Shown here piece after piece: positions 4,959 to 24,044 of a stretch of DNA of 64,000 nt (the stretch's first letter is position 1; each line of letters begins with the position of its first letter). Origin of the DNA: a virus (lineage: Duplodnaviria > Heunggongvirae > Uroviricota > Caudoviricetes); IMG/VR virus record IMGVR_UViG_2974564184_000001, positions 64,977 through 128,976 of that record. One strand, given 5' to 3'. The notes beneath the pieces were generated by a model. It was not told the DNA's origin. It made no database searches and worked only from the letters and a program-made list of their open reading frames with translations. The translations under genes were made by a program, and so were the position numbers.

Positions 4959-4960
4959 TT

Positions 4961-5629: not shown

Positions 5630-5647
5630 ACCTAAACGGATACGGCT

Positions 5648-7097: not shown

Positions 7098-7101
7098 CAG
7101 T

Positions 7102-7187: not shown

Positions 7188-7216
7188 TATGAGCAGATAT
7201 AAAGAAGAGGATATCA

Positions 7217-8647
7217 ATGGCTTATAACGATAAAGTGGTTGATGTAACAGTTGACCTCGGGACACAGCCGATCACTACAGTCGGGTTCGAAACCCCTCTG
7301 TTTGTTTCGATTCACAATGCCTTTGCAGCACGTCAACGTATCTACGGTGACACTGACTCAATGGTATCTGATGGATTTGCTCCAGGTTCCCCGGCCCACG
7401 TCTACGCGACCAAAGCCTTCGCTGGTAAGTTCCCACCTCAGTACATCCGTATTGGGCGCATGGCGCTGACCAACACTGTGATTGACTTCACAGGACAAAG
7501 TAACATTGACCCTACGACCCCAGTTGGCGTTAACGTTGTCTCTGGCAACTACTCCACCAGCTTCGTGATCCCGGTTACTGCTGCTTCAACCCCGGCAACA
7601 ATTGCAACTGCTCTGGTAGCTGCGATCTCTGCTGACACCACTCTGGAAGACGTTCTGACCGCAACTGCTGGCACCGCCGCTGATGCAGGTAAAGTAACTG
7701 TCGTTGCAGAAAATGGTGGCCTGTTCAGCATTGGTAAAGACCAGGGTAACTATGTTGTGACCAGCACAACCAGTGAAACTATCACCTCTGCACTGCCAGC
7801 TATCAACGCAAGCAGCAGCGATTGGTACTTCCTGACCACTGAATCACACACTGACGCGACCATTCTGGCTGCGGCTGCTTATGCTTCAACTAACTATAAA
7901 CTACACGTTTATTCAAGTCAAGACGAAGGCATTGCAGCGGGTTCAGAAGGTACTGTTCCAATGCAACTGAAAGCACTGGCGTATGATACCTCAATCGGTA
8001 TGTACGATCCAACTGCTGACACCACTTTCCCGGAAGCTGGTATCATCGGTGCAATGGCGTCCAACGACCCATCTTACGGTGACTCAATTCACCTGAAAAC
8101 GATGCCTGGTGTTGTGGCTCCAGACCTGGAACTGGATGAGCGTTCAAACATCTGGAATCAGAATGTAAACTTCTACCGTGTAATCAACGGTGTTGGCGCA
8201 TTCTGGGAAGGCAAGGTAGCATCCGGTCAGTACGTTGACGTGATCCGTTTCGGACACTGGATGAAGTATCGTACCGAAGAGTCAATCTTTGGGTACATGT
8301 CTCGCCGTTCTAACATGGGTCTGTCCGTGAAGATGAGCGATGATGATCTGCCGAACCTCAAGTCTGTGATGCTGAACTCACCGATCAACACTGGTATCGC
8401 CAACGGCGCAATCCTGACGGGTTACGACGAAACGAACAAAGTGTTCTATGATCCGGTAATCACCATTCCGACTCGTAGCAGCATCCCAACCAACGATCTT
8501 GCGACTCGTACTCTTAACAACGTAAAAGTGGAAGTTGTTTACAACGGCTCACTACACTTCGTTAAGATCCGAATCACGGTTCTGCTGGACAAGACTGCAT
8601 CAGCGACCACTACATCTGGTCAGACAACCACCACAGCATCCGTTTAA
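7217..8647 (+). CDS. Tail sheath protein (DUF3383-type, 476 aa)
   Basis: VVDVTVDLGTQPITTVGFETPLF N-terminus, SGQYVDVIRFGHW, followed by tube gene. Confidence 0.9.
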   Translation: MAYNDKVVDVTVDLGTQPITTVGFETPLFVSIHNAFAARQRIYGDTDSMVSDGFAPGSPAHVYATKAFAGKFPPQYIRIGRMALTNTVIDFTGQSNIDPTTPVGVNVVSGNYSTSFVIPVTAASTPATIATALVAAISADTTLEDVLTATAGTAADAGKVTVVAENGGLFSIGKDQGNYVVTSTTSETITSALPAINASSSDWYFLTTESHTDATILAAAAYASTNYKLHVYSSQDEGIAAGSEGTVPMQLKALAYDTSIGMYDPTADTTFPEAGIIGAMASNDPSYGDSIHLKTMPGVVAPDLELDERSNIWNQNVNFYRVINGVGAFWEGKVASGQYVDVIRFGHWMKYRTEESIFGYMSRRSNMGLSVKMSDDDLPNLKSVMLNSPINTGIANGAILTGYDETNKVFYDPVITIPTRSSIPTNDLATRTLNNVKVEVVYNGSLHFVKIRITVLLDKTASATTTSGQTTTTASV

Positions 8648-8662
8648 TATCAGGAGTGAATA

Positions 8663-9136
8663 ATGGATACAGCTATCCTAACCCCGTATGCGTATGACCC
8701 GAAGAAAGTACGCCTGTACCTGATGACTCAGCGCGTGACCGGGTTTGCTGCGGATACCAAGATCGTCGTTGCTCGTAACGAAGACAACATCATCCCTCAC
8801 ATGGGGGTTGATGGTGAGCTTTCTGCTGCTCTGTCTCGTAACCAGTCTGGTACGCTTACGGTTTCTCTACAGAACACCGCGAAGTGGAATGGCTACTTCT
8901 CGACGTGGCAAAAACAAGCAGCCATCACAGGTCTGATTTTCTTCCCGGTTCTCCTGGAAGGTTCTCAAGGTCTTGGTCTGTCAACTATCGGCTGGATTCA
9001 GCGTCAACCTGACCTGACATACGGCACCGAAGTTGGTCAGATGGACTGGGAAATCGGTATCCTGGACGCATGGCTGAGTAACGATTCCCTGACTGCAACA
9101 GGCTTCGGTCTGGCTGGTCTGGCTGGTATCGTTTAA
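8663..9136 (+). CDS. Tail tube protein (DUF3277-type)
   Basis: 157 aa; YDPKKV...GVDGE...SGTLTVSLQNTA pattern; follows sheath. Confidence 0.85.
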   Translation: MDTAILTPYAYDPKKVRLYLMTQRVTGFAADTKIVVARNEDNIIPHMGVDGELSAALSRNQSGTLTVSLQNTAKWNGYFSTWQKQAAITGLIFFPVLLEGSQGLGLSTIGWIQRQPDLTYGTEVGQMDWEIGILDAWLSNDSLTATGFGLAGLAGIV

Positions 9137-9144
9137 CAGTGTTT

Positions 9145-9215
9145 CGTGAGCCACATGGATGTGGCCTTTCTCTCACGCATGGATATTCTAACCTAAAGAC
9201 GCAGGAGCGTAAACG
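9145..9215 (+). promoter_or_regulatory. Leader with GGA hairpins (candidate CsrA/RsmA sites)
   Basis: ACAUGGAUGU in hairpin loop (9153-9162), second CAUGGAU (9178-9184), SD AGGA in loop of ACGC/GCGU hairpin. Confidence 0.4.
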
Positions 9216-9677
9216 ATGAAATTTAGACCAACGACAGAGATTGATCTGGCTGGACATAACTTCGAAATCACCCACTGGTCTCCGACCAAGGTAATGAAGA
9301 ACCTGCCAAAGATCGGTCGCTACGTAGCAGTTCCGATGGCAACCATCGGTGGCTCCATCATGAATGGTGGACAAAACCTCTCAGAAGCATTACCAACCGC
9401 GATTCTTTATCTGTTCGAACAGATGGAAGAAGACGACCTGAACAAGCTGTTTGAACTCATCCTTGAAGATGTGATTGTGGACAGTGTTGGCAAGGTAGAC
9501 ATCGACGGTATTTTCCAGGACAAAGTTTTCGACCTGATCAAACTGGTCACCAAAGTTCTGGAGATTAACTACGGATGTTTTTTCACGAAGGGCGGTTTCG
9601 GAGACCTCAAAGGACTCATGGGCAAACTGGGGATGGTTCATCAGGTGAACGTGATGGATCAGGAACCGACGGAGTAA
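9216..9677 (+). CDS. Tail assembly chaperone (gpG-like)
   Basis: 153 aa between tube and tape measure genes. Confidence 0.8.
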   Translation: MKFRPTTEIDLAGHNFEITHWSPTKVMKNLPKIGRYVAVPMATIGGSIMNGGQNLSEALPTAILYLFEQMEEDDLNKLFELILEDVIVDSVGKVDIDGIFQDKVFDLIKLVTKVLEINYGCFFTKGGFGDLKGLMGKLGMVHQVNVMDQEPTE

Positions 9678-9949
9678 CACCGCCGAAAATCTCCAAAGTT
9701 GTCCAGAGAGCTATTGACTACGCAAGAGCCAATAGCTCGTTATCCTGGTTCGACTACCTGTGGTGCAGAGCGTTAAAACAATTCAAAGGTGAGAACTTCC
9801 GCTCCCTTGAAAGCGCAGACATGGCATACCTCCTGAAACTGAACGAGTACCTTGATGTTGAAGACTTCATCAACGATGTGAGTGAGAAAGATCAAGAGTC
9901 CACAGCGAAGGCACAAGCCGCTGCTTCACGTACAGGCAGAAGAGGTTAA
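9575..9949 (+). CDS. Tail assembly chaperone -1 frameshift extension (gpT-like)
   Basis: Overlapping -1 frame opens after TAA 9566-9568; in-frame slippery heptamer T TTT TTC at 9578-9584. Confidence 0.7.
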   Translation: MFFHEGRFRRPQRTHGQTGDGSSGERDGSGTDGVTPPKISKVVQRAIDYARANSSLSWFDYLWCRALKQFKGENFRSLESADMAYLLKLNEYLDVEDFINDVSEKDQESTAKAQAAASRTGRRG

Positions 9950-9953
9950 TCTC

Positions 9954-9990
9954 AAGCCAGGTTCCTTTTCGGGAGCCTGGCTTTTTTATT
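9954..9990 (+). terminator. Rho-independent terminator
   Basis: AAGCCAGGTTCC...GGGAGCCTGGCTT plus T-run. Confidence 0.75.
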
Positions 9991-10002
9991 GAGAGGAATT
10001 CA

Positions 10003-12393
10003 ATGGCAGGCAATATCATTGTAACCACTACTGTCAACAAAGTAACGTGGCAGGTAGACAAAACAGCATACGGTAAAGCACTAAAGCAAGTCAAGTCTCT
10101 CAAGAAAGAGTGGGAGAAAGTCGGCTCAGGCGTTACCAAAAGAAACAACCCAGCAGAGAAGATCCTGTCTGCTGCTCAACAGGCTAAATTGGTCACGAAA
10201 CGTCTTGCTCAGACAGAACGTGCAGAACAGGCCAAGAGCACCGCACACGCAATTGCAATGGCAAAGAAGGAAGCCAATGCTCGTGCAGCGATCTCTAAGC
10301 GTGAAAGTGCTCGTCGTAAGCAAGTGGTAGGCAATCTAACCAATAGCCGTACACCCGAAGGTAAAGCAGAATACAATAACCTCCGTGATTGGTACAAGTC
10401 TCTTCAAAAAGAGCATGGCCCAGACAGAACCAACGGAGCACCTCGTAAGCCGATCACAATGAACTCTCCTGCTGGATACACACCATCAGGTCAAAGTCAC
10501 TTCGGTAAGCCAGGTCAAACGTCAGATCCTAACGGAGATATCACGGGTCGTCAAGTCGATGCCATGAACCGTGGTCACCGTCAGATGGAGAAAGAACGTC
10601 AGGCGGAAGAAGCACGTCAGGCCAAGAGCAACAAGAACGTTGAAAAAGAACGTGCGAGAGCTAAGGCAAAACGTGATAAAGATGACCGTGCAGATGAAAA
10701 GGCATGGGCGAGACGTGAAGTCGTTGTAGGCAACGCACAGCGTCGTCTGGAAGCGGCCCTTGGGCCACAGTGGAGAAAGAAGACGAAAGGGTTTGACACC
10801 TTATCCGATTCCCTTAAACTGAACGCCGGGAGTATCTCTCAGTACAACAGCCAGATCGGACAGATGATCCGCCAGGCGAAAGCTGCGGCGGGTGAGAACG
10901 TCAATCTGGGCAATAGTATCAAAGGTCTGCGTAGCAGCCTGATTGGAGCTACTGCTGCCTACACTTCTTTCAGCGCGGCACAGAGTATCCTAAGCAACGG
11001 GCAGTTCTTTGAGAGTATGAACGCAACCATGTTGATGGTTTCCGACACTCAGCAGCAAGCTGGTGAGAAGATGGAGTTCGTTCAGAAACAAGCATATCGT
11101 CTTGGTTTGAGTCTGAAAGTTGCGTCTCAGGGATACACCCAGATGTCTGTCAACGCCAAAGGCGTTATCAGCGATAGCGATACAAACGCCCTGTTCAAAG
11201 GGCTGTCAGAATTCTCCACAGCATCCGGTGCTGACCCAGTAAAATACCAACGTGGTATCACCGCGATTGGTCAGATGTTGGGTAAAGGCCAGATCATGGC
11301 GGAAGAACTGAAAGGTCAGCTTGCAGAAGCACTTCCTGGTTCAATGCAGATCTTCGTTAAGGCGGCGCAGAAATACTTCAAGGACGACAAGATTGGTGTC
11401 CCTGAGTTGCAAGACCTGATGAAGAATGGTAAGCTGTTGGCGAAAGATATCCTTCCAGAGGTTGCGAAAGGTTTTGCTGAGATGGCCCGTAAGAACGGCG
11501 CATTGAATGCACAGCTTAAATCCAACCGTGTGGCACAGGAACGTCTGAGCCAGTCTTGGATGGTCTTCCAGAACGAACTCTTCAAGGGTGGGTTTGGTAA
11601 GGAGATGACACGCCTGTTCAACTCCTTAGCTGACATGCTTAACACAAATGGCCCGGTAGGTAAAGCGCTTGGTGAATTCGCAGGTGGGTTTGTGAAGTCA
11701 ATGCGTTACATCATTGATATCACTTATGACACCTTCTACCTGATCAACGCGATCATTACCAAGTTCATTCAAGATCTCGGATTCAAGAACGTTGAGATGA
11801 GTAAGGTCTGGAACTGGGCAGGAATGATTGTTGGTGCGCTCTTCTTTGTCAGTGCTTTGAAAAAGGTATTTGGCATTCTTACTAAAATTGCTGGACTTCG
11901 TGGTGCGATCACAGCTATCGGTGCTGCTATGGGAATGGGCGCAGGTGGTGACGCCGACGAAGACGGTGATGGGAAGAAGAAAAAGAAGAAGGGCAGTGGA
12001 GGAGGAGGAAAGTTCAAAGGGCTGATGAAGTGGACAGGGATCGGAGCAGCCGCTTGGGGGATTACGGATGCCATCGGAGAGATGACTGGACTTGGTTCAG
12101 TTGATGACTCTATCGATTGGTGGAAGAATGCCTTGGGTGGTGTTGGAGATTCTATTTCCAAAGCAGGTTCCAACCATGAACAAGATCGACTGAACTACCT
12201 CAAAACGAACAGCATCATGCCGACAGGTAACTCCCCAGGCTCTGGAGCCAGCACAACCCCAGAACCAGGTAAGGTACAAGTTGAGGTGACCACTAAACTC
12301 GACGAAGGAAAACTCAAAGACATCATCGACCAACAAATCGAAGTGTCTGCGATGGGCGACTACAACCTACTGGCGGGTTCTTTGCCATACTAA
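10003..12393 (+). CDS. Tape measure protein (796 aa)
   Basis: Helical Ala/Lys-rich; tape-measure core (ITAIGQMLGKGQIMAEELKGQLAEALPG); hydrophobic segments; position after chaperones. Confidence 0.9.
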   Translation: MAGNIIVTTTVNKVTWQVDKTAYGKALKQVKSLKKEWEKVGSGVTKRNNPAEKILSAAQQAKLVTKRLAQTERAEQAKSTAHAIAMAKKEANARAAISKRESARRKQVVGNLTNSRTPEGKAEYNNLRDWYKSLQKEHGPDRTNGAPRKPITMNSPAGYTPSGQSHFGKPGQTSDPNGDITGRQVDAMNRGHRQMEKERQAEEARQAKSNKNVEKERARAKAKRDKDDRADEKAWARREVVVGNAQRRLEAALGPQWRKKTKGFDTLSDSLKLNAGSISQYNSQIGQMIRQAKAAAGENVNLGNSIKGLRSSLIGATAAYTSFSAAQSILSNGQFFESMNATMLMVSDTQQQAGEKMEFVQKQAYRLGLSLKVASQGYTQMSVNAKGVISDSDTNALFKGLSEFSTASGADPVKYQRGITAIGQMLGKGQIMAEELKGQLAEALPGSMQIFVKAAQKYFKDDKIGVPELQDLMKNGKLLAKDILPEVAKGFAEMARKNGALNAQLKSNRVAQERLSQSWMVFQNELFKGGFGKEMTRLFNSLADMLNTNGPVGKALGEFAGGFVKSMRYIIDITYDTFYLINAIITKFIQDLGFKNVEMSKVWNWAGMIVGALFFVSALKKVFGILTKIAGLRGAITAIGAAMGMGAGGDADEDGDGKKKKKKGSGGGGKFKGLMKWTGIGAAAWGITDAIGEMTGLGSVDDSIDWWKNALGGVGDSISKAGSNHEQDRLNYLKTNSIMPTGNSPGSGASTTPEPGKVQVEVTTKLDEGKLKDIIDQQIEVSAMGDYNLLAGSLPY

Positions 12394-12395
12394 CC

Positions 12396-12419
12396 AAAAG
12401 GGGCTTCGGCCCCTTTTTT
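12396..12419 (+). terminator. Rho-independent terminator
   Basis: AAAAGGGGC-TTCG-GCCCCTTTTTT. Confidence 0.9.
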
Positions 12420-12420
12420 G

Positions 12421-12449
12421 TTGTCTTATTAAGGGTTTCATGATAAACT
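12421..12449 (+). promoter_or_regulatory. Sigma70-type promoter
   Basis: TTGTCT-N17-TAAACT with TG extended -10. Confidence 0.6.
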
Positions 12450-12481
12450 CTTAATGAACCATTTAGTTAGGAGATTCAAGA

Positions 12482-13363
12482 ATGGCAGACTATACAGCTA
12501 TGCAGGAGGCAATTAATAAGGTTGCCGCCGAAGAGAATATGAAGGTGTCAACCACAACACTGTCAGAAAAGACAAGCCCACTTTACAGTAAGCGTGACGA
12601 TGCCGTAAAAACAGCGAACAGTGTCACCTACACACTATTTGCCAGTGGGATCAACCACGGCGGTAGAGATGTTGAGTTGAAAAATAAAAACACATCCACT
12701 GACCTGGCGATTGTTTTTGACGTTGTTGATTCACACACCTATTCAAGAACCATTAGTAAAACACAATTTGCAACAGAAGACAAGGTTAGTTTTTCAGACC
12801 ATGCAGTGATCGAAGACGGAAAGTTCTCTTTCAATGCTCGTGTCAACAGCTCACCTATGTACCTGATTAAAAACAACCTTATCGACAAAGACACTGACAC
12901 CAGTAATCCCGTGCAAAGCAAGCGTCCTCAGAAGGCTCTGGATGCTCTTCGGGAGATCATCGACAAACGTCAAGTTGTGACCTTGGTGACCGAGGACATT
13001 ATCCTTGAGAACTACATCTGCACTTCGATGTCCGCAGAGCGTAGCAGTGAAGAGGGTGCCGCACTGGTATTCAATTTGGAATTCACAGAGTTTCGAACCT
13101 TCACCCTCGGGAAGACAGTCTTGGCTTCCAACTTTGGAGACGCAAAGAAATCGGGTAATAAGCAGAAGGGTGCTGTCAACTCATCTTCAACGGACAAGCA
13201 GCGAGCTACCTACGAGCAGAAATCCAATCTTCACACGGATGCCATCAAAGGTGTGGCTAAGTACCTTGGCTATGAGAACGAAACATCCTCTGTTGTGCAG
13301 ACTGGTACGTGGAACCCTGACACAGGTCAATACTACGATTCCAACGGCGACCCAATCAAATAA
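12482..13363 (+). CDS. Baseplate / tail tube initiator protein
   Basis: 293 aa after tape measure; FDVVDSHTYSRT...EDKVSFSDHAV...LVFNLEFTEFR pattern. Confidence 0.65.
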   Translation: MADYTAMQEAINKVAAEENMKVSTTTLSEKTSPLYSKRDDAVKTANSVTYTLFASGINHGGRDVELKNKNTSTDLAIVFDVVDSHTYSRTISKTQFATEDKVSFSDHAVIEDGKFSFNARVNSSPMYLIKNNLIDKDTDTSNPVQSKRPQKALDALREIIDKRQVVTLVTEDIILENYICTSMSAERSSEEGAALVFNLEFTEFRTFTLGKTVLASNFGDAKKSGNKQKGAVNSSSTDKQRATYEQKSNLHTDAIKGVAKYLGYENETSSVVQTGTWNPDTGQYYDSNGDPIK

Positions 13364-13372
13364 GGAACTGAG

Positions 13373-13723
13373 ATGGCTTATATCAGTTATACTTGGGATC
13401 TGGACGGATACCCAGACCAGACCATGCGTGTGGTCTTGGACAGCCAGACTTATGAAATGCGATTCCAGTGGAATGAGCGTGATGAGTCTTGGCTTGTCTA
13501 TTTCGGGGATGTGGGGTCAGACCCAACAATCTCATTCAAAATGACGGCCTTCGTGGACTTCTTCCAACCATACCAGTACCTCGACAACATTCCTTCTGGG
13601 AAGTTGATGGTGGTCTCGTACACGGAATACAAGAAGCGCGTAGGTAGATACAATATCGGATTCCTGTCTGACTTGCAACTTATGTATGTCAGCCCAGAAG
13701 ACGAAGACATCGAGGAGGAATAA
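13373..13723 (+). CDS. Small baseplate protein (116 aa)
   Basis: YPDQTMRVVLD...YEMRFQWNERDESW pattern seen before hub genes. Confidence 0.6.
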   Translation: MAYISYTWDLDGYPDQTMRVVLDSQTYEMRFQWNERDESWLVYFGDVGSDPTISFKMTAFVDFFQPYQYLDNIPSGKLMVVSYTEYKKRVGRYNIGFLSDLQLMYVSPEDEDIEEE

Positions 13724-14718
13724 TGGCGCAGTACAGAACCAGGACATTTAAACTCACGCTCGGTAAGCCCGTATACATTGGTTCTGCTGCGACAAACATC
13801 GCCTCGTACATCAATATGGGTGGTGAGAACAATGCTTACTATGTGAGCAATGAGACCGGAGCTGCCAACATCGAGTTCGAGGTCAAGAAGGACAACAGCA
13901 AAGAGCCGAATAAAGGCTATATCACATTATACAACCTGTCAGAAGACACAGTGAACTACCTCGATGCAAACCAACGAGAGTCGCTTGCGGTAGTCCTTGA
14001 AGCAGGTTATGATGGTGATAACCAAATCCTTTTCTCTGGCACGATTGAGTTCGTTCAAGACAAATGGGACGGCCCGACCCGTCAGACCAAGATGATCTTG
14101 GGTGACGCCACCCAGAACCTTATGACGGCAAAGACCTCGCGATCATACCGCAAGGGAACCTCCCTTGATACGGTTCTGAATGACTTGATCTCTGACCTTA
14201 AACTCCCAAGCGGGAAGATTGTCAAGTTTGGTGCTGAGACCACCCAACAGGCAATGGCTTTTTCTGGGAACGCAGCAACAAATCTTGCGAAGCTGGCAAA
14301 GAACACAGGGTCTACATTCAGTGTTCAAGACGGCGCGGTTTACTGGACAAAGCAAGGAAAAAGGTTGAAGCAGACGGTCTTCGAGATTAGTGTTGAATCA
14401 GGTATGCACGACTCTCCTACTGCCCAGAACCCAGAACCCGCAAAACGTCGCTTGGAGAAAAAGGCCAAGTCCAAGAAGAAGACAACCAAACCTCATGAGA
14501 AAACCGCTGCGGAAATCAAAGAGGATGCGGGGCTTGTTGTTGTGACGGCTTTAAATGGAGCAATCCTACCGGAGAGCACTATTTATTTGAAGAGCCTGAA
14601 ATACACAGGCTTCTATAAGGTTGTCTACTTGACTCACAAAGGGGAGCTGGAAGGGTCAAACTGGACAACGGAACTGGGGCTTTCAGAAACACGCGGTGGC
14701 GTGGTTGAGGAGGGTTAA
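13723..14718 (+). CDS. Baseplate hub protein
   Basis: 331 aa; IEFEVKK...ITLYNLS...LEAGY...LFSGTI pattern; precedes spike. Confidence 0.75.
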   Translation: MAQYRTRTFKLTLGKPVYIGSAATNIASYINMGGENNAYYVSNETGAANIEFEVKKDNSKEPNKGYITLYNLSEDTVNYLDANQRESLAVVLEAGYDGDNQILFSGTIEFVQDKWDGPTRQTKMILGDATQNLMTAKTSRSYRKGTSLDTVLNDLISDLKLPSGKIVKFGAETTQQAMAFSGNAATNLAKLAKNTGSTFSVQDGAVYWTKQGKRLKQTVFEISVESGMHDSPTAQNPEPAKRRLEKKAKSKKKTTKPHEKTAAEIKEDAGLVVVTALNGAILPESTIYLKSLKYTGFYKVVYLTHKGELEGSNWTTELGLSETRGGVVEEG

Positions 14719-15419
14719 TGGCAGCTATTCAAAGAATCGACGCAGCGCTGGGTCTGTTCGTAGACCGTGCGTTACGTGAAGTCCATACCAACATTCGTGC
14801 AAAAGTGGTTGATGTGGATGTTGGAATCCCTTCTGTAACGGTGCAGCCGATGGCCTCCACTGAATTCTCGGACGGGACAGTTGATGCTTACCCGGCAATG
14901 TTTGATGTGCCACTTTACATGCCTTCTGGGAATGGAGGCAAAGCACGTTTGACCATGCCTGTCAAGGCTGGAGACATTGTGGGGCTGACCTTCTCGGAAA
15001 GAAACGAAGGAGACAAGACTGACATGAACACCCACGGCCTGTTTGCAGGCTGGGCGATCAGTCAGATCTTTTCAGACAGCAATGCCACTCCAATAGACCC
15101 TGAAAATGTTGAGTTGTGGAATGACCAAGTTCATTTCAGTATGACCCCGGAAGGGGATTATACACTGACCGGGCCAAAAGGAACTATGAAGATCGACAAG
15201 GCAGGTGTCTGGTCTTTCGACAACGGAGCTGCCAAGTTCACTGCTCAGGAAGATGGGAACTTCGATATGAATGGAGCCAAGGTCACACCTGACGGAAACG
15301 TCATTACGAAGAGCGGCACAAACTTGGACGAGTTCTATGCTTGGTTCCAACGTCACGGTCACAACTACACATGGACAGCAGGTGGTGGTTCCAACGTCAC
15401 TCCGGCACCAAACGCATAA
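14718..15419 (+). CDS. Central baseplate spike (phi92 gp138-like)
   Basis: OB-fold-type N-terminus (VTVQPM...DVPL...PVKAGDIVGLTF); C-terminal HxH metal-binding tip (RHGHNY). Confidence 0.85.
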   Translation: MAAIQRIDAALGLFVDRALREVHTNIRAKVVDVDVGIPSVTVQPMASTEFSDGTVDAYPAMFDVPLYMPSGNGGKARLTMPVKAGDIVGLTFSERNEGDKTDMNTHGLFAGWAISQIFSDSNATPIDPENVELWNDQVHFSMTPEGDYTLTGPKGTMKIDKAGVWSFDNGAAKFTAQEDGNFDMNGAKVTPDGNVITKSGTNLDEFYAWFQRHGHNYTWTAGGGSNVTPAPNA

Positions 15420-15428
15420 GGAGACTAC

Positions 15429-15962
15429 ATGTCTACATTCTATGGTGACTTCTTGCTTGACCCTGTAACGGGAGACTTAGATGTCTCCCAAGGGTTGCAG
15501 ATTATCGACTCAAACCAGATTAGCTTGCGACAGAGGCTTTGGCTTCGTTTCAATATCTGGCAGGGAGATTGGTACTTTGATACCACGATTGGCTTCCCAT
15601 ACAGATCGTACCTCGGTCAAAAAGTAATGAAAACCATCCTCGATAACAAAATCAAGGAAATCTCACGTCTCGAATCGGATGTGTTGGCGATCAACAACTT
15701 TGAGTCCGTCATGGACAGGGCGGGACGTTCATACGAAGCCTACTTCGAGGTGCTGACACAGGAGCAAGATATTGTTCGTATTGCCTTTGTAGGGTCAGAA
15801 GACTACGCCTACCCAATTCCAGATGATGCAAGCTCTCCAGCTTCTCTTTGTGGCGAGGATGGTTGGGTTTCATGGTCTAACAAGCTATACTACCTGGTCA
15901 ACTTCCGTCTACCTCGCCCTGGTGATTCTACATGGATCAACACTTGGACTGGCAACCCCTAA
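15429..15962 (+). CDS. Baseplate wedge protein (gp25/DUF2634-like)
   Basis: DFLLDPVTGDL...LRQRLWLRF...WYFDTTIGFPY pattern. Confidence 0.75.
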   Translation: MSTFYGDFLLDPVTGDLDVSQGLQIIDSNQISLRQRLWLRFNIWQGDWYFDTTIGFPYRSYLGQKVMKTILDNKIKEISRLESDVLAINNFESVMDRAGRSYEAYFEVLTQEQDIVRIAFVGSEDYAYPIPDDASSPASLCGEDGWVSWSNKLYYLVNFRLPRPGDSTWINTWTGNP

Positions 15963-15966: not shown

Positions 15967-15990
15967 AAACCCGCTTCGGCGGGTTTTCTT
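15967..15990 (+). terminator. Rho-independent terminator
   Basis: AAACCCGC-TTCG-GCGGGTTTT. Confidence 0.8.
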
Positions 15991-16017
15991 GCAAATCAAT
16001 ACCCTGTATGATAAAAT
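15989..16017 (+). promoter_or_regulatory. Sigma70-type promoter for the baseplate-cellulase-fibre operon
   Basis: TTGCAA-N17-TAAAAT with TG extended -10. Confidence 0.7.
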
Positions 16018-16058: not shown

Positions 16059-17558
16059 GTGGCCGACCAGAAAACATTCGGGTTAAACGACTACGGTTTC
16101 ACCGTGCCGTCCCTGGACACACTGATTGCAGAAACAAAAGAATCTCTGATCGCCATCTTTGGCGAGACCTTCAACACACAATCCAACTCCATCGTCGATA
16201 AACTGACAACGATCCTGAACGAACGTGAATATCAACTCATCCTTCTGGGACAGGCGATCTACGCTTCTGGGACACTGGCAGGTGCCGAAGGCATTTACCT
16301 TGATGAATTGCTGGGCCGTCGTGGTGTTTACCGCCGTGGTAAAACGAAGAGCACAGGTTCAATTGAGATGGCTGTCAACGCAACCGTCCCTTACAACCTT
16401 ATTTATACTCCAGACTCATTCACCGTTGACAATGGTACGTTCATCCTGACGGGAAACACGACCGTTGCGGGGAGTCTGATTGCACAGCAGATTTTAAACT
16501 CTGATCTGGTTCTTGGTAAATACACGTTCCAAGTCCTGAGTTCTGCTGACAACTCAATGAAGTCAATGAGTGTTACCCTTCGAAACAAGACCCCGGGTTC
16601 AACAGAGCTTAACACGTTCCTTTATTCGATCAAGGACTTTATCGTAACCAACACCACAGATTTGAACGCAGATCTGATTTATGTTGACTCCGCCGCAGGC
16701 GCACTGTACATTGGATACAACTCGACGAAAGAGCTTATCGGGCTTAACAGTCGCATCGACTTCCGTTCTTCTCCTATTGCTGGTACACGTACCTTGCAGT
16801 TCGAAGTTGTGGCAGTAGAAGCGGGTGTTCTCACAAGAGAAGCCAATACAGTGACGCAGATTTCTCCGACACCGAGCGGATTCATCTCTCTGAACAACAT
16901 GACCTCGTTTGCTGATGGTGCGGACGTGGAGACGGACAACGAATACAAAATTCGTGCGATGTCAATCACATCTGAGGCTTCCAAAGCAACACGTCCTGCT
17001 GTAATCTCCGCCCTTCTGGGTGTTGAAGGTGTTCAGAAAGTCAAGATCTTCGCCAACAACACAGATCAGCGCGACCAGTACGGTGTTCCAGCCTACAAAT
17101 TCGAGCCAGTTGTGTATGGTGGTGTAACGGAGCAGATCAGCCAGGCACTGTACAACACAATTGCTTTGTCCAATGGGACATACGGTAACACGTTCTACGA
17201 TATCACCACTGAGGATGATACTGTCGAGCGAATCTACCATAGCAAGGCGTCGTCCACGAGCTACAACGTACTGATCCGTTACCAAGGTAAGGTTCTCTCC
17301 TCAACCGAGCAGGATACTATCCGTCGTGCGATCAAGTTGATGACTGACGGTTTGACAATTGCAGATACCCTTTACAACATCCAGCTAATCGCTGCGGTTG
17401 CCGGGGCGGTATCAGCAGGTCGATTCACTCAGCTTACGGCTGCTGTGAAGAAGGCCAGCGAACCAACGTCCGCTTACACCTCTTCCGACGTAGTGTTGGG
17501 AATGCGTGAAGTGTTTGCTCTGGACACAGCGAACATCTTGTTCCAACAAATCACTTAA
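16059..17558 (+). CDS. Baseplate J-like wedge protein (499 aa, GTG start)
   Basis: AEGIYLDELLGRRGVYR, GADVETDNEYKIR, VEGVQKVKIFANNT motifs; SD GGAGG. Confidence 0.9.
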   Translation: MADQKTFGLNDYGFTVPSLDTLIAETKESLIAIFGETFNTQSNSIVDKLTTILNEREYQLILLGQAIYASGTLAGAEGIYLDELLGRRGVYRRGKTKSTGSIEMAVNATVPYNLIYTPDSFTVDNGTFILTGNTTVAGSLIAQQILNSDLVLGKYTFQVLSSADNSMKSMSVTLRNKTPGSTELNTFLYSIKDFIVTNTTDLNADLIYVDSAAGALYIGYNSTKELIGLNSRIDFRSSPIAGTRTLQFEVVAVEAGVLTREANTVTQISPTPSGFISLNNMTSFADGADVETDNEYKIRAMSITSEASKATRPAVISALLGVEGVQKVKIFANNTDQRDQYGVPAYKFEPVVYGGVTEQISQALYNTIALSNGTYGNTFYDITTEDDTVERIYHSKASSTSYNVLIRYQGKVLSSTEQDTIRRAIKLMTDGLTIADTLYNIQLIAAVAGAVSAGRFTQLTAAVKKASEPTSAYTSSDVVLGMREVFALDTANILFQQIT

Positions 17559-17568: not shown

Positions 17569-19758
17569 ATGGCAGATACATTGCAAGATGTAAACCACAT
17601 CCATGTGCTGCCTGACTTCGTGCAGGACGGGGTTAATTATCTACCTGGCGATTTCCTTCGCCAGAAAGAAAACCTTGTAAAGTTCTTGGGAACGTACCTT
17701 GAGAGACTTCGCGTAATTGACGAAATGCTTGTCAATCTCTCTGAGGGCCGACTGCTGGCGAATGCCGCTTACAAGAACCTGGACGAGATTGGCAGACAGC
17801 TTGGTGTTGACCGTAACGGTATGAGCGATGACAGTTATCGTGCTTCCATTACGATCCTACTGGCGAGTGCTTCAAAACACGGGACACGCCCGGAAGTTAT
17901 TCAAACTTTACGTCAGTTGTTTGGTGACCAAAACTTCACCACCTGGAAAGGTGACAACTATCGTATCGACATTCACGTAATGTCAACCTGTTTCCGACTG
18001 GAAGATCTCCTTCAAGAGATCAAAGATATGCTGCCCCTTCCAACGCATCTGCGTTTGATTGAATCGTATGGCAGAGCTTTCGGATTCAACGGCGATAAGG
18101 ACACCTTCGGGTTCTCCTCTGTGAATGCAAACAAGACAACGACAACCCAAGGTGGGATTGCTCGTCTGGTGTACACTTCTGATGAAGAGAACACTGGATA
18201 CATCATGACCGTCACAGTCGATGACATCACTGTCAACGCCTCTGAGGTAGCACCTGTAGGTATCGTGATCTCTATCTCTGATGCTGTTCTGACAGAATCA
18301 AGTGATAGTGTGACAATTGCACCACTGTCTGTAGCCTTCGGCACAGCTACCGTTGGGGAACCAACAGCAAGCAAGCTGATGACTGTGAACAACAACACTG
18401 ACTTCACGGTTACGATTGCAACCCTGACCATGCCGACCGGGTACACACTCGCATCTGGCAGTGCTCAAGTGGGAACTGTAATTGCTCCAAGAAAGACAGC
18501 CGATATTGCTGTTAGCTTTAATCCGCAAGAAGTCGGGAACATCTCTGGAAACATGGTTGTTACCACAACAGGACAAGCAAGCACGTTAAGAGTTCTTCTT
18601 TCTGGTGTTGGTAAGGCAGCTCCGATTGTTGGATTGCAGCGCCTGGTGACATCTGGTAACCAGTTCGTGACCACTCAGAGTGCTGAGAATTTCCGAATCA
18701 AATCTGTAAACTGGTTTGGTATGGAAGGTCTGAACTTCACCCCTCACGGAACGTGGGTCGGTGCTCGTTACTGGAAAGACATCATTGACCAGATCAAGAC
18801 ATTCGGATTTAACACGATCCGTATCCCTCTGTCTGGAGAAGTGGTACAGAACAACCCATACCCACCGAATGGTGCTGTGGACTTAGAGGTTAACTCTGAA
18901 TTCGTTGACAAGAGAGCGCTGGAGATCTTGGATCTCATCATTGCTTATTGCAACACTCAAGAAATCTATGTTATCCTTGACCATCACCGTCGTGCTGCGG
19001 GTACAGGTGCAGATGGCTCTCCGGTTGACGGAAGCTACAACTTGACCAAATGGTTGGACACTTGGACGAAACTGGCAACGCGCTATAAATCAGCGGTTAA
19101 CGTTATCGGGGCAGACGTTCACAACGAACCGCATGACCTTGACTGGGCAACGTGGGCAGGCTATGCTGAACAAGCTGGTAATGCTATCCACGCTGTGACC
19201 ACTGATTGGATCATCTTCGTTGAAGGTGTTGGACAGTACGAGAATGTCAGCTACTGGTGGGGCGGTCAGCTTCAAGGTGTTGCAACTCGTCCGGTAACTC
19301 TGACTCAACCGAACCGTGTGGCTTACAGCCCTCACGAATACGGACAGAGCGTTGGAAGTCAGTCTTGGCTGGCATACGACAATCAGACACCTCCGGTGAA
19401 CTGGCCTAACAACTTGTACGGCGTTTGGCAACCAATGTGGGGTTACATCTTCACACAGAATATTGCGCCGCTTTGGGTCGGTGAGTTTGGTGGACACTTC
19501 GGTGTCGATGGTAACGGAAACGTAACTAAGCCTCACGCAACCTATGAGAAGCAATGGCTCAATAATCTCATCAAATATTGGAATGGTGACTTTGACGGCA
19601 ACGGGACAAAAGATCTGGCAGCAGGGAAGAAAGGAATTTCCTACAGCTACTGGAGCTACAACCCGAACAGTGGTGATACAGGTGGTCTTGTAGAAGACGA
19701 CTGGGTAACTCCTCAAACTGTGAAGCTCGATCTGCTCGCTCCTGCATTGTCCGACTGA
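17569..19758 (+). CDS. Baseplate wedge protein (DUF2612/gpI-like) fused to Ig-like domain and GH5 endoglucanase (729 aa)
   Basis: Likely start ATG 17569 (SD GAGG). N-terminal LDEIGRQLGVDR wedge motif; C-terminal GH5 motifs VNWFG, GFNTIRIP, VILDHHR, HNEPH (Glu codon 19126), YSPHEYG, VGEFGG (Glu codon 19483), YWSYNPNSGDTGG. Confidence 0.92.
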   Translation: MADTLQDVNHIHVLPDFVQDGVNYLPGDFLRQKENLVKFLGTYLERLRVIDEMLVNLSEGRLLANAAYKNLDEIGRQLGVDRNGMSDDSYRASITILLASASKHGTRPEVIQTLRQLFGDQNFTTWKGDNYRIDIHVMSTCFRLEDLLQEIKDMLPLPTHLRLIESYGRAFGFNGDKDTFGFSSVNANKTTTTQGGIARLVYTSDEENTGYIMTVTVDDITVNASEVAPVGIVISISDAVLTESSDSVTIAPLSVAFGTATVGEPTASKLMTVNNNTDFTVTIATLTMPTGYTLASGSAQVGTVIAPRKTADIAVSFNPQEVGNISGNMVVTTTGQASTLRVLLSGVGKAAPIVGLQRLVTSGNQFVTTQSAENFRIKSVNWFGMEGLNFTPHGTWVGARYWKDIIDQIKTFGFNTIRIPLSGEVVQNNPYPPNGAVDLEVNSEFVDKRALEILDLIIAYCNTQEIYVILDHHRRAAGTGADGSPVDGSYNLTKWLDTWTKLATRYKSAVNVIGADVHNEPHDLDWATWAGYAEQAGNAIHAVTTDWIIFVEGVGQYENVSYWWGGQLQGVATRPVTLTQPNRVAYSPHEYGQSVGSQSWLAYDNQTPPVNWPNNLYGVWQPMWGYIFTQNIAPLWVGEFGGHFGVDGNGNVTKPHATYEKQWLNNLIKYWNGDFDGNGTKDLAAGKKGISYSYWSYNPNSGDTGGLVEDDWVTPQTVKLDLLAPALSD

Positions 19759-19769
19759 GAGGAGTAACA

Positions 19770-22190
19770 ATGAGACAGGCTACATTTACAACAACCCTCA
19801 ACCAGGCCAGCGAATCGCTGGTCACGGTTGACTATGCCACCCAGGACGGATCTGCGGTGGCACCCGCTAACTATACAGCTAAGTCTGGGACTTTGACGTT
19901 TGCAGCAGGGGAAACCTCTAAAGACATCATCGTCCTTGTGAACGACGACGCGCCTGCGGAGACAGAGACGAACTTCTATGTTCTCTTGACCAATCCGCAG
20001 AACGGCGTCTTAGGGACTTCTCGTGGTACGGCTACAGTACCGGGTTCAGAAGAACCACCGAAGACGAACTATCTGGAACGGTTCAAGACCATTTACAACA
20101 TGGTTCATGATGTCGATAACAAATACTTTGGGCCGCAGACAGGGGCGAATGCTCGCACACTGCCACGTCACATCCCGGGTGTTGATAGTATCATCATCAA
20201 CGAAGCGCCTGACCACGGTGGTGAAACCGTATCAGAAACTGCTTCCTTCTGGGTTGGTCTGGAAGCGTGGAATGGTTACGTAAGCGGACAACTGGGAACC
20301 GCCGATTGGTCAGGTTATAACAACGCCTGGAACCAGATCGATAAGTTCTACGTTCCGTCTGCGACTAACCAGCCGATTGCGACGTATCTACCAGCGAAAC
20401 CAGCGGACTACACCCCAGAGGGTGACTTGCCGAGTGCTTACCCGACACTGGGTGACCCGACAGCAGCCCACGGTACTGACCCGTTAGCAGATGAGTTGGA
20501 ATCAACCTACGGCAACAAGCGCATGTATCTCATGCACTGGATTCTGGACGTTGAAGGCTTGTACAATTTCCGAAATGGCGATGGTACTAAGCAGAACGTG
20601 TATATCAACACGTATGAACGCGGTATGCAGGAATCTTCTTTCGAGACGGTAACGCACCCGGCGTGGAACGACTTTGCTAACGGTGGTTCTATCTACGGAT
20701 ATGACCCATTGTTCACCCAAGGATCTCAGTGGTATCCAGCAGCAGCCAACGATTGGGGTAAGAAGTGGTCATACACTAACGCACCCGATGCAGAAGGCCG
20801 TGCGATCCAGTGGTCATTCTGGGCGCAGAAGTTTGCAACCGAACAAGGCGCAGGTACAGCCATCTCTGCTTCGACTACAAAAGCGAAGAAGATGGGCGAC
20901 TACATGCGTTACAACCTTTTCGATAAATATTTCCGCAAAATTGGTGATAATCAATTAGGTGGGACGGGTTACGAAAGTTGCCATTATCTGGTAAACTGGT
21001 ATGCAGCATGGGGCGGTGAGATTCCGGCAGCAGGAGCTACAGCTTCTTGGTCGTATCGTATCGGTTCCTCTGAGTGTCACCAAGGTTATCAGGCAATCGA
21101 CTCAGCATATTTCATGGCAACAGGTGGTGGTGGATTCAGTCCTCTGTCCCCGAGCGCTTCTGACATTTGGTTAGGCTCTGTCTACCGTCAGATGGAAATG
21201 CTTCGTTGGTTGCAATCAGCAGAAGGCCCGTTAGCAGGTGGTGTGACGAACTCCTGGAACTCTCGTTACGAGACTCCTACCGATGGTCGTCAGAACGCCA
21301 AGTTCTACGGAATGGTTTATACCTATGCTCCAGTATGGCACGATCCACCATCAAACGACTGGGTTGGTTTCCAGACATGGGGTCAAGGCCGTACAGCGGA
21401 TCTGTTCTTGGAAGTGTCTGATAAGGCAACTCCACTGGCAACAACATTGAAAGCCAACCTTGAGGTCATCCTTGATCCTCTGGTTGTGTGGTTCCTGAAC
21501 AACTCTACGTTGTCCTCTGATGGTTCATTCCTGCTCCCGGGAACTCTGTCTTGGACTTCCCCGACGCAAGTTGTTGGTCAGACGGCGACCGCGCCAAACC
21601 ACGAAGGTGTGTATGAATACCTTCCATCCCTTAACTGGGACGGAACAGGTAACCAAGCAGCATTCTGGAATGCGTCCACAGTTCCTAACCCGAACTTGCA
21701 TTGCAGCATTGTTGAGTATGCAACCGACCTCGGTGTTGCAGCGTCCTTGGCTTACATGTTGATCTCTTACGCGAAAGCGAAGCAGAACATGGGTAAATTC
21801 ACCACCAAGATCAAAAGTACAAACCACACCGCAGAAACTGCGTTGACGTTTGCCAAAGAATTGCTGGATCGCATGTGGAACAAATACGTCGATGACGTTG
21901 GCCTCGCGATTGACAGTTCAATGTCAAGCTACAAGCGTCTGTTTGACACGGTGTATGTGCCAGAGATCTTCACAGGTACGATGCCGAACGGCGAGCAGAT
22001 CAAGACGGGCGTTAAGTTCCATGAACTTCGTACCTTCTTGCACGATGACCCTAAATGGGCAGAAGTACAGGCGTATGCGACAGGTGCTACTAACGTGCCA
22101 CCAGTGTTCAAATACCACCGCTTCTGGGCGCAAGCCGAATTCGCGATCAGTCTCGCGGCTCTCCATCGTTACTTTAGCGACGTGATCTGA
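19770..22190 (+). CDS. Calx-beta domain plus glycoside hydrolase family 48 cellulase (806 aa)
   Basis: Calx-beta (VDYATQDGSA...YTAKSGTLTFAAGETSK); GH48 motifs YLERF, EAPDHG-ETVSE, MHWILDV, INTYERG, YTNAPDAEGRAIQ, GGVTNSW, YHRFWAQ; no signal peptide. Confidence 0.92.
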   Translation: MRQATFTTTLNQASESLVTVDYATQDGSAVAPANYTAKSGTLTFAAGETSKDIIVLVNDDAPAETETNFYVLLTNPQNGVLGTSRGTATVPGSEEPPKTNYLERFKTIYNMVHDVDNKYFGPQTGANARTLPRHIPGVDSIIINEAPDHGGETVSETASFWVGLEAWNGYVSGQLGTADWSGYNNAWNQIDKFYVPSATNQPIATYLPAKPADYTPEGDLPSAYPTLGDPTAAHGTDPLADELESTYGNKRMYLMHWILDVEGLYNFRNGDGTKQNVYINTYERGMQESSFETVTHPAWNDFANGGSIYGYDPLFTQGSQWYPAAANDWGKKWSYTNAPDAEGRAIQWSFWAQKFATEQGAGTAISASTTKAKKMGDYMRYNLFDKYFRKIGDNQLGGTGYESCHYLVNWYAAWGGEIPAAGATASWSYRIGSSECHQGYQAIDSAYFMATGGGGFSPLSPSASDIWLGSVYRQMEMLRWLQSAEGPLAGGVTNSWNSRYETPTDGRQNAKFYGMVYTYAPVWHDPPSNDWVGFQTWGQGRTADLFLEVSDKATPLATTLKANLEVILDPLVVWFLNNSTLSSDGSFLLPGTLSWTSPTQVVGQTATAPNHEGVYEYLPSLNWDGTGNQAAFWNASTVPNPNLHCSIVEYATDLGVAASLAYMLISYAKAKQNMGKFTTKIKSTNHTAETALTFAKELLDRMWNKYVDDVGLAIDSSMSSYKRLFDTVYVPEIFTGTMPNGEQIKTGVKFHELRTFLHDDPKWAEVQAYATGATNVPPVFKYHRFWAQAEFAISLAALHRYFSDVI

Positions 22191-22192
22191 TC

Positions 22193-22221
22193 AAGGGGGG
22201 CGGGAAACCGCCCTCTTTTTT
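22193..22221 (+). terminator. Rho-independent terminator after GH48 gene
   Basis: GGGGCGG-GAAA-CCGCCCT plus T-run. Confidence 0.75.
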
Positions 22222-22231
22222 GGAGAGATAA

Positions 22232-22585
22232 ATGGCAACGGTTACAGCTACCTTCACCCTTAGCAGGGACAATTTCGCGGAGATTAGTTCTCTGGACTAT
22301 GCGACAAGTGATGGCACCGCGATTGCAGGTGTTGATTATGTGGCAAAGTCAGGACGGATCACCATGAGCGCAGGCACCGTAGAGGTGCAAATCTCAATTG
22401 ATGTAATGACCAAGCCGAAAGGCACCCCGAGCAAGACCTTCTTCCTCGATTTGTCAAACCCATCTAAGTATCGAAAACTCATTACCAAAATCGCCCGGAC
22501 AAGAGCGGTGTGTACGATTTACACCACTGACGCTGGCCCACTCGCTGTCATCAGCATTAGCGATGCAGTAATCACACAAGTATAA
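22232..22585 (+). CDS. Stand-alone out-of-phase Calx-beta protein (117 aa)
   Basis: LDYATSDGTAIAGVDYVAKSGRITM...TFFLDLSNPS; lacks N-terminal strand and ends in VISISDAVITQV. Confidence 0.85.
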   Translation: MATVTATFTLSRDNFAEISSLDYATSDGTAIAGVDYVAKSGRITMSAGTVEVQISIDVMTKPKGTPSKTFFLDLSNPSKYRKLITKIARTRAVCTIYTTDAGPLAVISISDAVITQV

Positions 22586-22595: not shown

Positions 22596-23534
22596 ATGGC
22601 ACAACCTGAGATCGAGATCGAAGTATGGGCAGGGTTAGATTATGATCTGCCTAATGCCCTGACAAAAAACAAAATCAGACCTATCTCTGACCTATGGGAT
22701 AAGGGATATGATATGGGCGAGAAGCCTGATGTCCAGGCGTGGAACTACGTGTGGTACATGCTGACTGTGTGGATGAAGTACATGCAGGAAGAGCAGCTTC
22801 CAGGTCTTGATAACCTTTACCTGAAACGCACAAGAAACCTTGAGGAACTGACTGATAAGCCACAGGCTCGTAGTAACTTGGGTGTTTATTCGAAAGATGA
22901 CTCCGACAACCGTTACTTGCAGCTAACGGGTGGCGCTCTGTCAGGTGGATTGAAAATTGCTGGTAACACCGCAGTTGATATCACCTCACAAGGTCTTGCT
23001 ATTCGCTGGAACGAGACCAACGGCTCAGGCGCTACCTTCTTTGTCAACAACCAGGGTGGTGGGACAGGTGGTTTTGTATTCCGTAACGTGAACGCATTAG
23101 GTACTGCGGAAACTGGTCGTGTAACGATCCAGCCGAACGGCTCTCTGGTAACTTCCGCTACAGTTCGTGGTGGAACTCTGGAATCAACTGGTAACGCCAG
23201 TGTAGCAGGAACCACAACAACTGCCAACCTTACGGTGCAGAATAACGCAGCAACAGTTGGTGGACGACATGTAGCGAGAGCAGTGAACGGAAACATCGCA
23301 GACGAGAACGGTAACGTGACAGTGACCATTCCTTCTCCTGGTGTTACTGACGTTCGTCTTGGGTCTCAAGGGAACCAAGGTGCTTCGAATAGCTTCACAG
23401 TTCCTGCTGGATGCCTGGTTACAGGTCTTAACGGTTTCAAAGTAACCGGGCCTGACTTCCAACTTTATGGTCTATTCTACCGTCCTCTCCAGAAATTCCT
23501 CAACGGGGTCTGGGTGACCGTTTCAGTAATCTAA
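22596..23534 (+). CDS. Tail fibre protein (312 aa)
   Basis: Baseplate-attachment N-terminus (WDKGYDMGEKP...WNY); C-terminal tip DVRLG...VPAGCLVTG...YRPLQKFLNGVW; followed by fibre assembly gene. Confidence 0.8.
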   Translation: MAQPEIEIEVWAGLDYDLPNALTKNKIRPISDLWDKGYDMGEKPDVQAWNYVWYMLTVWMKYMQEEQLPGLDNLYLKRTRNLEELTDKPQARSNLGVYSKDDSDNRYLQLTGGALSGGLKIAGNTAVDITSQGLAIRWNETNGSGATFFVNNQGGGTGGFVFRNVNALGTAETGRVTIQPNGSLVTSATVRGGTLESTGNASVAGTTTTANLTVQNNAATVGGRHVARAVNGNIADENGNVTVTIPSPGVTDVRLGSQGNQGASNSFTVPAGCLVTGLNGFKVTGPDFQLYGLFYRPLQKFLNGVWVTVSVI

Positions 23535-23543: not shown

Positions 23544-24044
23544 ATGATCCACCTGAAAAATTTTAAAATCTACACCCCGGAGACCGTCCCAGACGGTTTC
23601 TTGGGACACGAAGTCGTGTTCTTTCAATCCGAAGATGGTGTGGATTTCTACCAAATCCTTGCAGATATGAAAGAGGATACCGTCAAGGTATTGTACCGTG
23701 ATGATGTCGTTGTTGGATTCTCAACCGACGCCAGCGCACTTTACCCTGCCGATGCCAGCCTCATCGAGTTGAAAGCCGAGAACATTCCTGATGATATCTC
23801 TATCGACGGAAGGTTCATGGTAGACTTCAAGAAGAGAGCTGTCAAGCTAAATGAGAAAGCCATTCTCGAAAACACCAAGGAGCAAATCCTTGCTGAGATT
23901 GCGCCGACCATTGAAGACCTTCAAGACAAGGTTGACACAGGTGACGCTACGGATGAAACGCTTGAAACCTTCAAACAGTGGAAAGCATACCGTATCGCCG
24001 TCAGAAAAGCAACTACGCTGGAAGAGCTTCCAGAGAAACCGTAA
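23544..24044 (+). CDS. Tail fibre assembly protein (Tfa-like)
   Basis: FFQSEDGVDFY...FSTDASALYP; C-terminal LQDKVD...WKAYRIAV...PEKP. Confidence 0.85.
   Translation: MIHLKNFKIYTPETVPDGFLGHEVVFFQSEDGVDFYQILADMKEDTVKVLYRDDVVVGFSTDASALYPADASLIELKAENIPDDISIDGRFMVDFKKRAVKLNEKAILENTKEQILAEIAPTIEDLQDKVDTGDATDETLETFKQWKAYRIAVRKATTLEELPEKP

Follow-up and report, generated by a model that had tools for sequence, protein, structure and literature searches.

The stretch of DNA analysed here (the window) comprises 64,000 nucleotides, positions 64,977 to 128,976 of the IMG/VR record IMGVR_UViG_2974564184_000001, a virus record of 148,842 bp with direct terminal repeats. Its baseplate region contains a block of three genes, P0001, P0002 and P0003, located between a Baseplate-J gene and a short tail fibre gene. 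The nearest public relatives of the window are the Erwinia phages pEp_SNUABM_01, pEa_SNUABM_55 and pEa_SNUABM_56 of the genus Henunavirus (Vequintavirinae), with 81% nucleotide identity across the locus, so that pEp_SNUABM_01 is no more than a species-level relative. The window phage is a Henunavirus-type Erwinia myovirus, probably Erwinia phage Hena1. A first-pass annotation of the window had described the three genes as a wedge-GH5 fusion, a Calx-beta-GH48 protein and a small Calx-beta protein, all without signal peptides, and had proposed that they form an endo/exo cellulase pair carried by the virion. Open reading frames were found exactly at the claimed positions between the Baseplate-J and fibre genes, and all three domain assignments were verified (Table 1). 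The gaps that separate the Baseplate-J gene, P0001, P0002, P0003 and the fibre gene in turn measure 10, 11, 41 and 10 nt. A signal-like N-terminus is absent from all three, as the longest hydrophobic run within their first 35 residues spans 2-5 residues.

P0001 joins a core baseplate protein to a cellulase. Its residues 4-208 are homologous to Wedge 1 of phage phiTE, whose structure has been solved (9mjn, E 2.6e-64), and this relationship together with the position right after the Baseplate-J gene identifies the N-terminal domain as wedge 1 of the DUF2612/phiTE gp7 type. While phiTE Wedge 1 (PDB 9MJN, 9CUY) consists of 214 residues without an enzyme, P0001 appends 520 residues that make up a linker, an immunoglobulin-like (Ig-like) spacer and a GH5 domain. 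Wedge 1 of the Vequintavirinae phages 4MG and Seu621 measures approximately 210 residues and has the short fibre gene directly behind it; the stand-alone 4MG homologue (210 residues) ends where the wedge domain of P0001 ends. The P0001 reading frame extends beyond the shared motif 'YTSDEENT' to encode the linker, Ig-like domain and GH5; downstream of it lie two additional genes. Since wedge 1 of 4MG and Seu621 is succeeded directly by the fibre, approximately 4 kb were inserted in frame after the motif. The GH5 domain scores 153.8 bits against PF00150 (cut-off 23.5), and the C-terminal 370 residues match the solved enzymes CelE2 (8fc0, E 1e-81) and Acidothermus E1 (1ece, E 5e-71). The acid/base residue is Glu520 (codon 19126) and the nucleophile is Glu639 (codon 19483), and both the N519-E520-P521 motif and E639 are invariant across 57 homologues. 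By profile, solved relatives and catalytic glutamates, the domain is a member of family GH5 and resembles the E1/CelE2-like endo-1,4-beta-glucanases; hydrolysis of beta-1,4-glucan is predicted from its homologue gp095 of Erwinia phage vB_EamP-S6 (S6), which acts on carboxymethyl-cellulose. In the AlphaFold model of P0001 the Ig-like and GH5 domains reach a predicted local distance difference test (pLDDT) score above 90, and residues 163-236 form a low-confidence linker. Because GH5 and wedge 1 are parts of one polypeptide, GH5 must be borne by the virion. In phiTE, Wedge 1 is present in one copy per wedge and six per baseplate, makes up the trifurcation unit and also binds the short fibre (PMC11972413). 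If this copy number applies, the window phage would carry six covalent GH5 arms at the baseplate rim.

The second protein, P0002, combines a Calx-beta head with a GH48 catalytic domain. The match to PF02011 reaches 652 bits over two stretches that together span profile positions 1-619, and solved GH48 cellulases are matched at about E 1e-148 (6d5d, E 2e-148). Candidate catalytic residues are Glu145 (codon 20202), Glu156 (20235) and Asp340 (20787, within an N-A-P-D motif), all three of which are invariant across 77 homologues. The catalytic glutamate pair of Cel48F is Glu44 and Glu55 (PMC10317168), and the spacing of 11 residues between Glu145 and Glu156 is the same. P0002 is assigned to family GH48 on the basis of the full-length profile, the solved members and these residues. 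A search of PHROGs v4 matched only the Calx-beta head, as this collection contains no GH48 family.

Selection on the three genes was analyzed in four Henunavirus-like genomes, namely the window, pEp_SNUABM_01, a 145-kb ENA contig and a 6-kb Logan contig. The ratio of nonsynonymous to synonymous substitution rates (dN/dS) of 0.06-0.12 indicates strong purifying selection on each of the three genes and equals that of the Baseplate-J gene. Their order is conserved in all four genomes.

The Calx-beta domains of P0002 and P0003 are the only two in the genome of the window phage and both begin at strand B. Their Pfam alignments start at positions 35 (P0002) and 24 (P0003) of the 119-position profile; that of P0002 extends from residue 14 over profile positions 35-100. 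Inspection of 40 N-termini of GH48 homologues revealed that, with the exception of P0039, all start in the register of P0002 right after the initiator methionine. An exhaustive profile search with P0003 was dominated by giant tandem Calx-beta proteins and returned no specific relatives, and these arrays were used for a comparison of registers. Residues 2-116 of P0003 are collinear with them and run from strands B to G through a short linker into the A strand of what would be the next repeat. This orphan A strand, 'VISISDAVITQV', ends the protein and is invariant in relatives. It is duplicated in one Henunavirus-like contig (L013), whose small Calx-beta protein (positions 11656-12045) has 129 residues because the C-terminal orphan strand is present twice in tandem. 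Two further motifs of this kind are found in the P0001 linker. The first (residues 213-225) resembles the C-terminal strand of wedge 1 of Escherichia phage Av-05, and the second (residues 233-246) recurs in GH5 proteins of S6, of phiEaP8 and of many metagenomic phages, in some cases in two to three copies. No repeat was found at the DNA level between the two 'ISISDAV' copies and they are thus not a recent duplication. A monomer fold of P0003 computed on a four-sequence alignment had a mean pLDDT of 33.6.

The clearest comparative case is provided by Av-05 (Avunavirus; L016, positions 4001-6754), where the same genome slot contains a wedge 1 of 225 residues that ends in the A-strand motif. Beyond this strand there is no fusion, and 12 bases downstream a protein of 687 residues opens with strand B of a Calx-beta domain, so that the domain is split exactly at the gene boundary. 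The cargo is not a cellulase but an N4 gp65-like non-contractile tail sheath protein (NCTSP_N and TIM-barrel), and the pair would represent the minimal version of a plug-and-socket arrangement. In Erwinia phage PEp14 (L006), the annotated amylovoran depolymerase Dpo and the 962-residue tail protein gp19 are encoded at positions 8653-11439 and 12241-15129. Both share the strand-B-first Calx-beta head of the GH48 protein, which suggests, from the sequences, a general mounting module for varied cargo enzymes. Donor and acceptor strands occur in a 1:1 ratio in N4-like phages. A single-chain GH5-GH48 protein on Logan contig SRR19200050_39909 (L011), described below, has neither a donor strand nor a socket. 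The arrangement recalls the donor-strand complementation of chaperone-usher pilins, in which the strand missing from a beta-sandwich is present as an orphan copy on a second chain, although the likeness here is one of sequence register only. We give about even odds to the proposal that strand complementation in trans mounts GH48, with P0003 as adaptor or extender. The chances are likewise balanced for the broader idea that the split Calx-beta domain is a portable plug-and-socket standard with interchangeable cargo cassettes, to which P0003 would add sockets as an extender. The cassettes would then include GH48, the amylovoran depolymerase, the N4 gp65-like sheath protein and others, and the mounts would be N4-like and Bcep22-like podovirus tails and Vequintavirinae myovirus baseplates.

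Table 1. Genes, protein domains and other features of the locus (nucleotide positions refer to the window)
Feature	Position	Strand	Basis
Sigma-70-like promoter match before the Baseplate-J gene	15989-16017	+	TTGCAA-17-TAAAAT with TG, 9/12; consensus match only
Baseplate-J-like wedge subunit (wedge 2 type)	16059-17558	+	Pfam Baseplate_J, E 4e-8
P0001, wedge 1 + Ig-like + GH5, 729 residues	17569-19758	+	Open reading frame
P0001 residues 1-209, wedge 1 baseplate domain	17569-18195	+	Match to phiTE Wedge 1; phrog_4056, baseplate protein
P0001 residues 213-246, linker with two orphan Calx-beta A-strand-like motifs (213-225, 233-246)	18205-18306	+	Motif reading
P0001 residues 248-349, Ig-like (ASH/TMEM131-like) spacer	18310-18615	+	Pfam (residues 248-348); pLDDT >90
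P0001 residues 359-729, GH5 endoglucanase domain	18643-19758	+	Pfam Cellulase/GH5, residues 378-701, E 8e-45
P0002, Calx-beta + GH48, 806 residues	19770-22190	+	Open reading frame
P0002 residues 1-92, Calx-beta beginning at strand B, without A strand	19770-20045	+	Pfam, E 6e-15
P0002 residues 101-806, GH48 catalytic domain	20070-22190	+	Pfam Glyco_hydro_48, E 1e-195
Terminator-like GC hairpin followed by T-run, between the GH48 and P0003 genes	22193-22221	+	-22.6 kcal/mol, z -3.9
P0003, Calx-beta protein, 117 residues	22232-22585	+	Pfam Calx-beta only, E 2e-10
P0003, Calx-beta body from strand B (residues 1-100) and C-terminal orphan A strand (residues 105-117)	22544-22582 (strand)	+	Tandem-array register
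Short tail fibre	22596-23534	+	phrog_4465, tail fibre protein
Tail-fibre assembly protein	23544-24044	+	Pfam Caudo_TAP; phrog_136

Comparison with known phages revealed that the enzyme pair itself is not new. S6 (Schitoviridae, Waedenswilvirus), which infects the same host species, encodes gp095 (GH5) and gp094 (Calx-beta and GH48) next to each other and in the order observed in the window. The two phages share the module of A-strand motif, Ig-like domain and GH5 (59% identity) and the Calx-beta-headed GH48 protein (64-65%). The architecture of the S6 pair is therefore recovered in the window, with adjacent GH5 and GH48 genes, a Calx-beta head on GH48 and an Ig-like domain before GH5, but its context is not. 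S6 is an N4-like podovirus whose GH5 protein has two extra N-terminal Ig-like domains and not a baseplate wedge domain; it lacks the small Calx-beta adaptor gene, and its pair lies between an appendage gene and the lysis cassette. The window pair is located in the baseplate operon of a contractile tail with GH5 fused to wedge 1. According to a published commentary on S6 (PMC9544554), a transposon screen showed that the cellulose of the host bcs operon is required for infection, gp095 degrades carboxymethyl-cellulose, Congo red blocks infection and the combination of Calx-beta and GH48 in gp094 had already been described. In later work, cellulose is regarded as an established receptor of Erwinia phages.

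The block is kept in Henunavirus. In pEp_SNUABM_01, pEa_SNUABM_55 and pEa_SNUABM_56 the proteins gp075, gp074 and gp073 occupy the same place with amino-acid identities of 85%, 90% and 84%, and are annotated as 'baseplate protein/putative glycoside hydrolase', 'putative glycoside hydrolase' and 'putative tail fiber protein'; no functional study of them was found in the literature searched. A GH5 gene followed by a Calx-beta-GH48 gene is also present in phiEaP8 (N4-like), Kuerle, Pastis and several Fifi phages, and a 72-kb N4-like contig carries a GH5-then-GH48 pair whose GH48 is the closest relative outside Henunavirus. Annotations such as 'cellulase', 'glycoside hydrolase family 48 protein' and 'putative glycoside hydrolase' are attached to the proteins of pEp_SNUABM_01, phiEaP8, Kuerle and the Fifi phages. 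Databases contain approximately 80 clusters of Calx-GH48 proteins of roughly 800 residues (40-90% identity), mostly on contigs of 60-77 kb, and hundreds of Ig-GH5 proteins with varied N-terminal anchors (Gp77-type, extra Ig domains, wedge 1), while the fusion of GH5 to wedge 1 was detected in only three clusters of database matches. The first-pass statement that an endo/exo pair would be unusual for a phage is thus contradicted by the published S6 pair, by these annotations and by the abundance of the pair on metagenomic phage contigs. An endo/exo cellulase pair is already known for phages of this host, and what is new is that GH5 is covalently fused to wedge 1 on the baseplate of a contractile tail, that an extra adaptor gene is present and that docking probably relies on a split domain.

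A GH48 tree places 80 phage proteins in a single clade, distinct from the actinobacterial CBM2-GH48 proteins (38-42% identity), and the Henunavirus trio is nested deep within the phage clade beside the N4-like contig. In keeping with this nesting, the A strand-Ig-GH5/Calx-GH48 block probably entered the Henunavirus lineage horizontally from the podovirus pool, a direction that we infer from these sequences. Two other arrangements were encountered. Logan contig SRR19200050_39909 encodes, at positions 6853-10833, a single GH5-GH48 protein of 1326 residues with a C-terminal Ig-like domain and without Calx-beta, located between the lysozyme/lysis block and the small terminase gene of a lambdoid-type phage. 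The existence of this single-chain fusion indicates that GH5 and GH48 are functionally linked. A contig of Novosphingobium sp. PhB55 (L012, positions 5803-15525) resembles a Bcep22/PEp14-like podovirus prophage and encodes in a row a Gp77-Ig-GH5 protein with two tandem donor-like motifs, a Calx-headed protein of 716 residues, a Calx-GH48 protein and a Calx-headed protein of 1034 residues. The module is therefore also found in phages of Alphaproteobacteria.

The flanking genes agree with a baseplate location of the block. The Baseplate-J gene is syntenic with the 'baseplate wedge subunit' of pEp_SNUABM_01 and 4MG, and the fibre gene with the fibre that directly follows wedge 1 in 4MG and Seu621. 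The promoter that had been proposed upstream of the Baseplate-J gene fared less well. A sigma-70-like match does begin at the claimed position, but it is a consensus match and the promoter region contains 24 such matches where 14.5 are expected by chance. The stem and T-run of the hairpin that precedes P0003 are kept in the four Henunavirus-like genomes better than the flanking coding DNA, and the hairpin may govern the balance between upstream and downstream products. On the Henunavirus-like contig L013 an extra tailspike gene (2679-5309) was observed before the Baseplate-J gene. The head/neck region of the window contains a gene (2382-4958) for a protein of 858 residues with 53-60% identity to annotated exopolysaccharide (amylovoran-type) depolymerases of Bue1, phiEa2809, Cronus and Key, and such a depolymerase has been noted for Hena1 (PMC10194208). 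The window phage thus appears to be equipped against two matrix exopolysaccharides of its host.

The reading favored here, to which we assign a probability of about 0.72, is that of a virion-mounted cellulase pair, with GH5 on wedge 1 and GH48 docked, which binds and cuts host cellulose. The E1-like GH5 domain would hang from the C-terminus of wedge 1 via the flexible linker and the Ig-like spacer, which would place six GH5 arms at the baseplate rim beside the short tail fibres. The processive GH48 cellulase would most likely join the same arm through the split Calx-beta domain. The missing A strands of GH48 and P0003 would be supplied in trans by the P0001 linker and the P0003 C-terminus, with P0003 acting as an adaptor or extender. 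By binding and cutting the bcs-made beta-1,4-glucan of the host, the enzymes would allow the baseplate to reach the outer membrane, and cellulose may serve as a required first receptor, as in S6. Host cellulose, which had also been named in the first-pass annotation, is the best candidate substrate, given that S6, which encodes the homologous pair, needs bcs cellulose; the window phage may show a similar dependence by analogy with S6, the phage for which it is known. With regard to the proposal of a virion-borne pair, the GH5 half stands, as it forms one chain with wedge 1, while the location of GH48 on the virion is what we infer.

Several observations weigh against this reading. For both the window phage and its genus, function is predicted from sequence, and no publication reporting cellulose dependence for Henunavirus phages was found in the literature searched. 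The phage also carries the amylovoran-type exopolysaccharide depolymerase, so cellulose need not be an essential receptor. With regard to docking, three candidate donor strands face two acceptors in the window phage, the counts are also mismatched in PEp14 and in the Novosphingobium prophage, and the donor strands are degenerate in PEp14-like phages. The conserved terminator-like hairpin stands between the genes for GH48 and P0003. Finally, the fused enzyme of the lambdoid-type contig is encoded near lysis genes, and in at least one phage these enzymes may therefore be soluble.

This last point leads to the alternative that survives best, although it is unlikely. Only GH5 would be borne by the virion, and GH48, with or without P0003, would be a soluble late enzyme that is freed at lysis and clears the cellulose matrix, so that progeny could escape or reach neighboring cells. 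Such a role is compatible with the lack of a recognisable baseplate domain in P0002 (Pfam), with the position of the lambdoid-type fusion between lysis genes and terminase, and with the adjacency of the pair to the lysis cassette in N4-like phages. However, the GH48 gene of the window is located inside the wedge-to-fibre block at a distance of 11 nt from its neighbor, its Calx-beta head is common to annotated tail proteins or depolymerases of several podoviruses, and this head lacks precisely the strand that neighboring structural proteins carry as an orphan.

It is considerably less probable that the domains are mainly cellulose-binding receptor modules, for which hydrolysis would be incidental or very slow and which would serve for holding on and not for tunnelling through the matrix. 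Processive GH48 enzymes do grip glucan chains tightly in their tunnel (PMC10317168), and the commentary on S6 raises a receptor use of the hydrolases (PMC9544554). Selection for binding only would nevertheless not be expected to keep all catalytic carboxylates invariant in 57 and 77 phage homologues. Least probable, by a little, is a target other than bacterial cellulose (another beta-glucan, a mixed-linkage host surface polymer or plant cell-wall cellulose), for although GH5 is a poly-specific family and the phage lives on plant surfaces, the closest solved GH5 relatives (CelE2 and E1) are endo-1,4-beta-glucanases, all solved GH48 matches with functional names are cellulases, the S6 homologue cuts carboxymethyl-cellulose in a phage that requires the bcs operon (PMC9544554), and Pfam detects no binding module for crystalline plant cellulose, unlike in the actinobacterial relatives, which have CBM2.

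Two further suggestions of the first-pass annotation had to be abandoned. Pfam searches of P0001, P0002 and P0003 at E values up to 0.01 detected no cohesin, dockerin or scaffoldin, and neither CBM2/CBM3 nor any other cellulose-binding module was found in the three proteins by Pfam. The description of the block as a mini-cellulosome is ruled out by the absence of cohesin and dockerin. Cellulosomes and the free cellulase systems of actinobacteria (GH5 or GH9 with GH48) likewise pair an endo-acting enzyme with GH48, held close on a scaffold. In contrast to these systems, the phage trio lacks cohesin, dockerin and CBM2/CBM3, and its scaffold is the phage baseplate. Plant cell walls were rejected as the main target given the lack of a cellulose-binding module and the fact that the closest functional precedent concerns host cellulose; nothing in the analysis suggests that the enzymes act on the surfaces of plant cells.

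In the fire-blight pathogen, against which phages are being developed, cellulose forms part of the matrix and acts as a virulence factor. Phages that require cellulose were already known, and the locus described here adds a case in which the enzyme pair has probably moved from podoviruses to a large myovirus and has been welded onto a core baseplate protein. The mounting on wedge 1 provides a defined position and copy number for the study of depolymerases at a contractile baseplate. If it proves true, docking by a split Calx-beta domain would explain the exchange of cassettes between unrelated tail types and would give a simple means of fitting phages with different enzymes.

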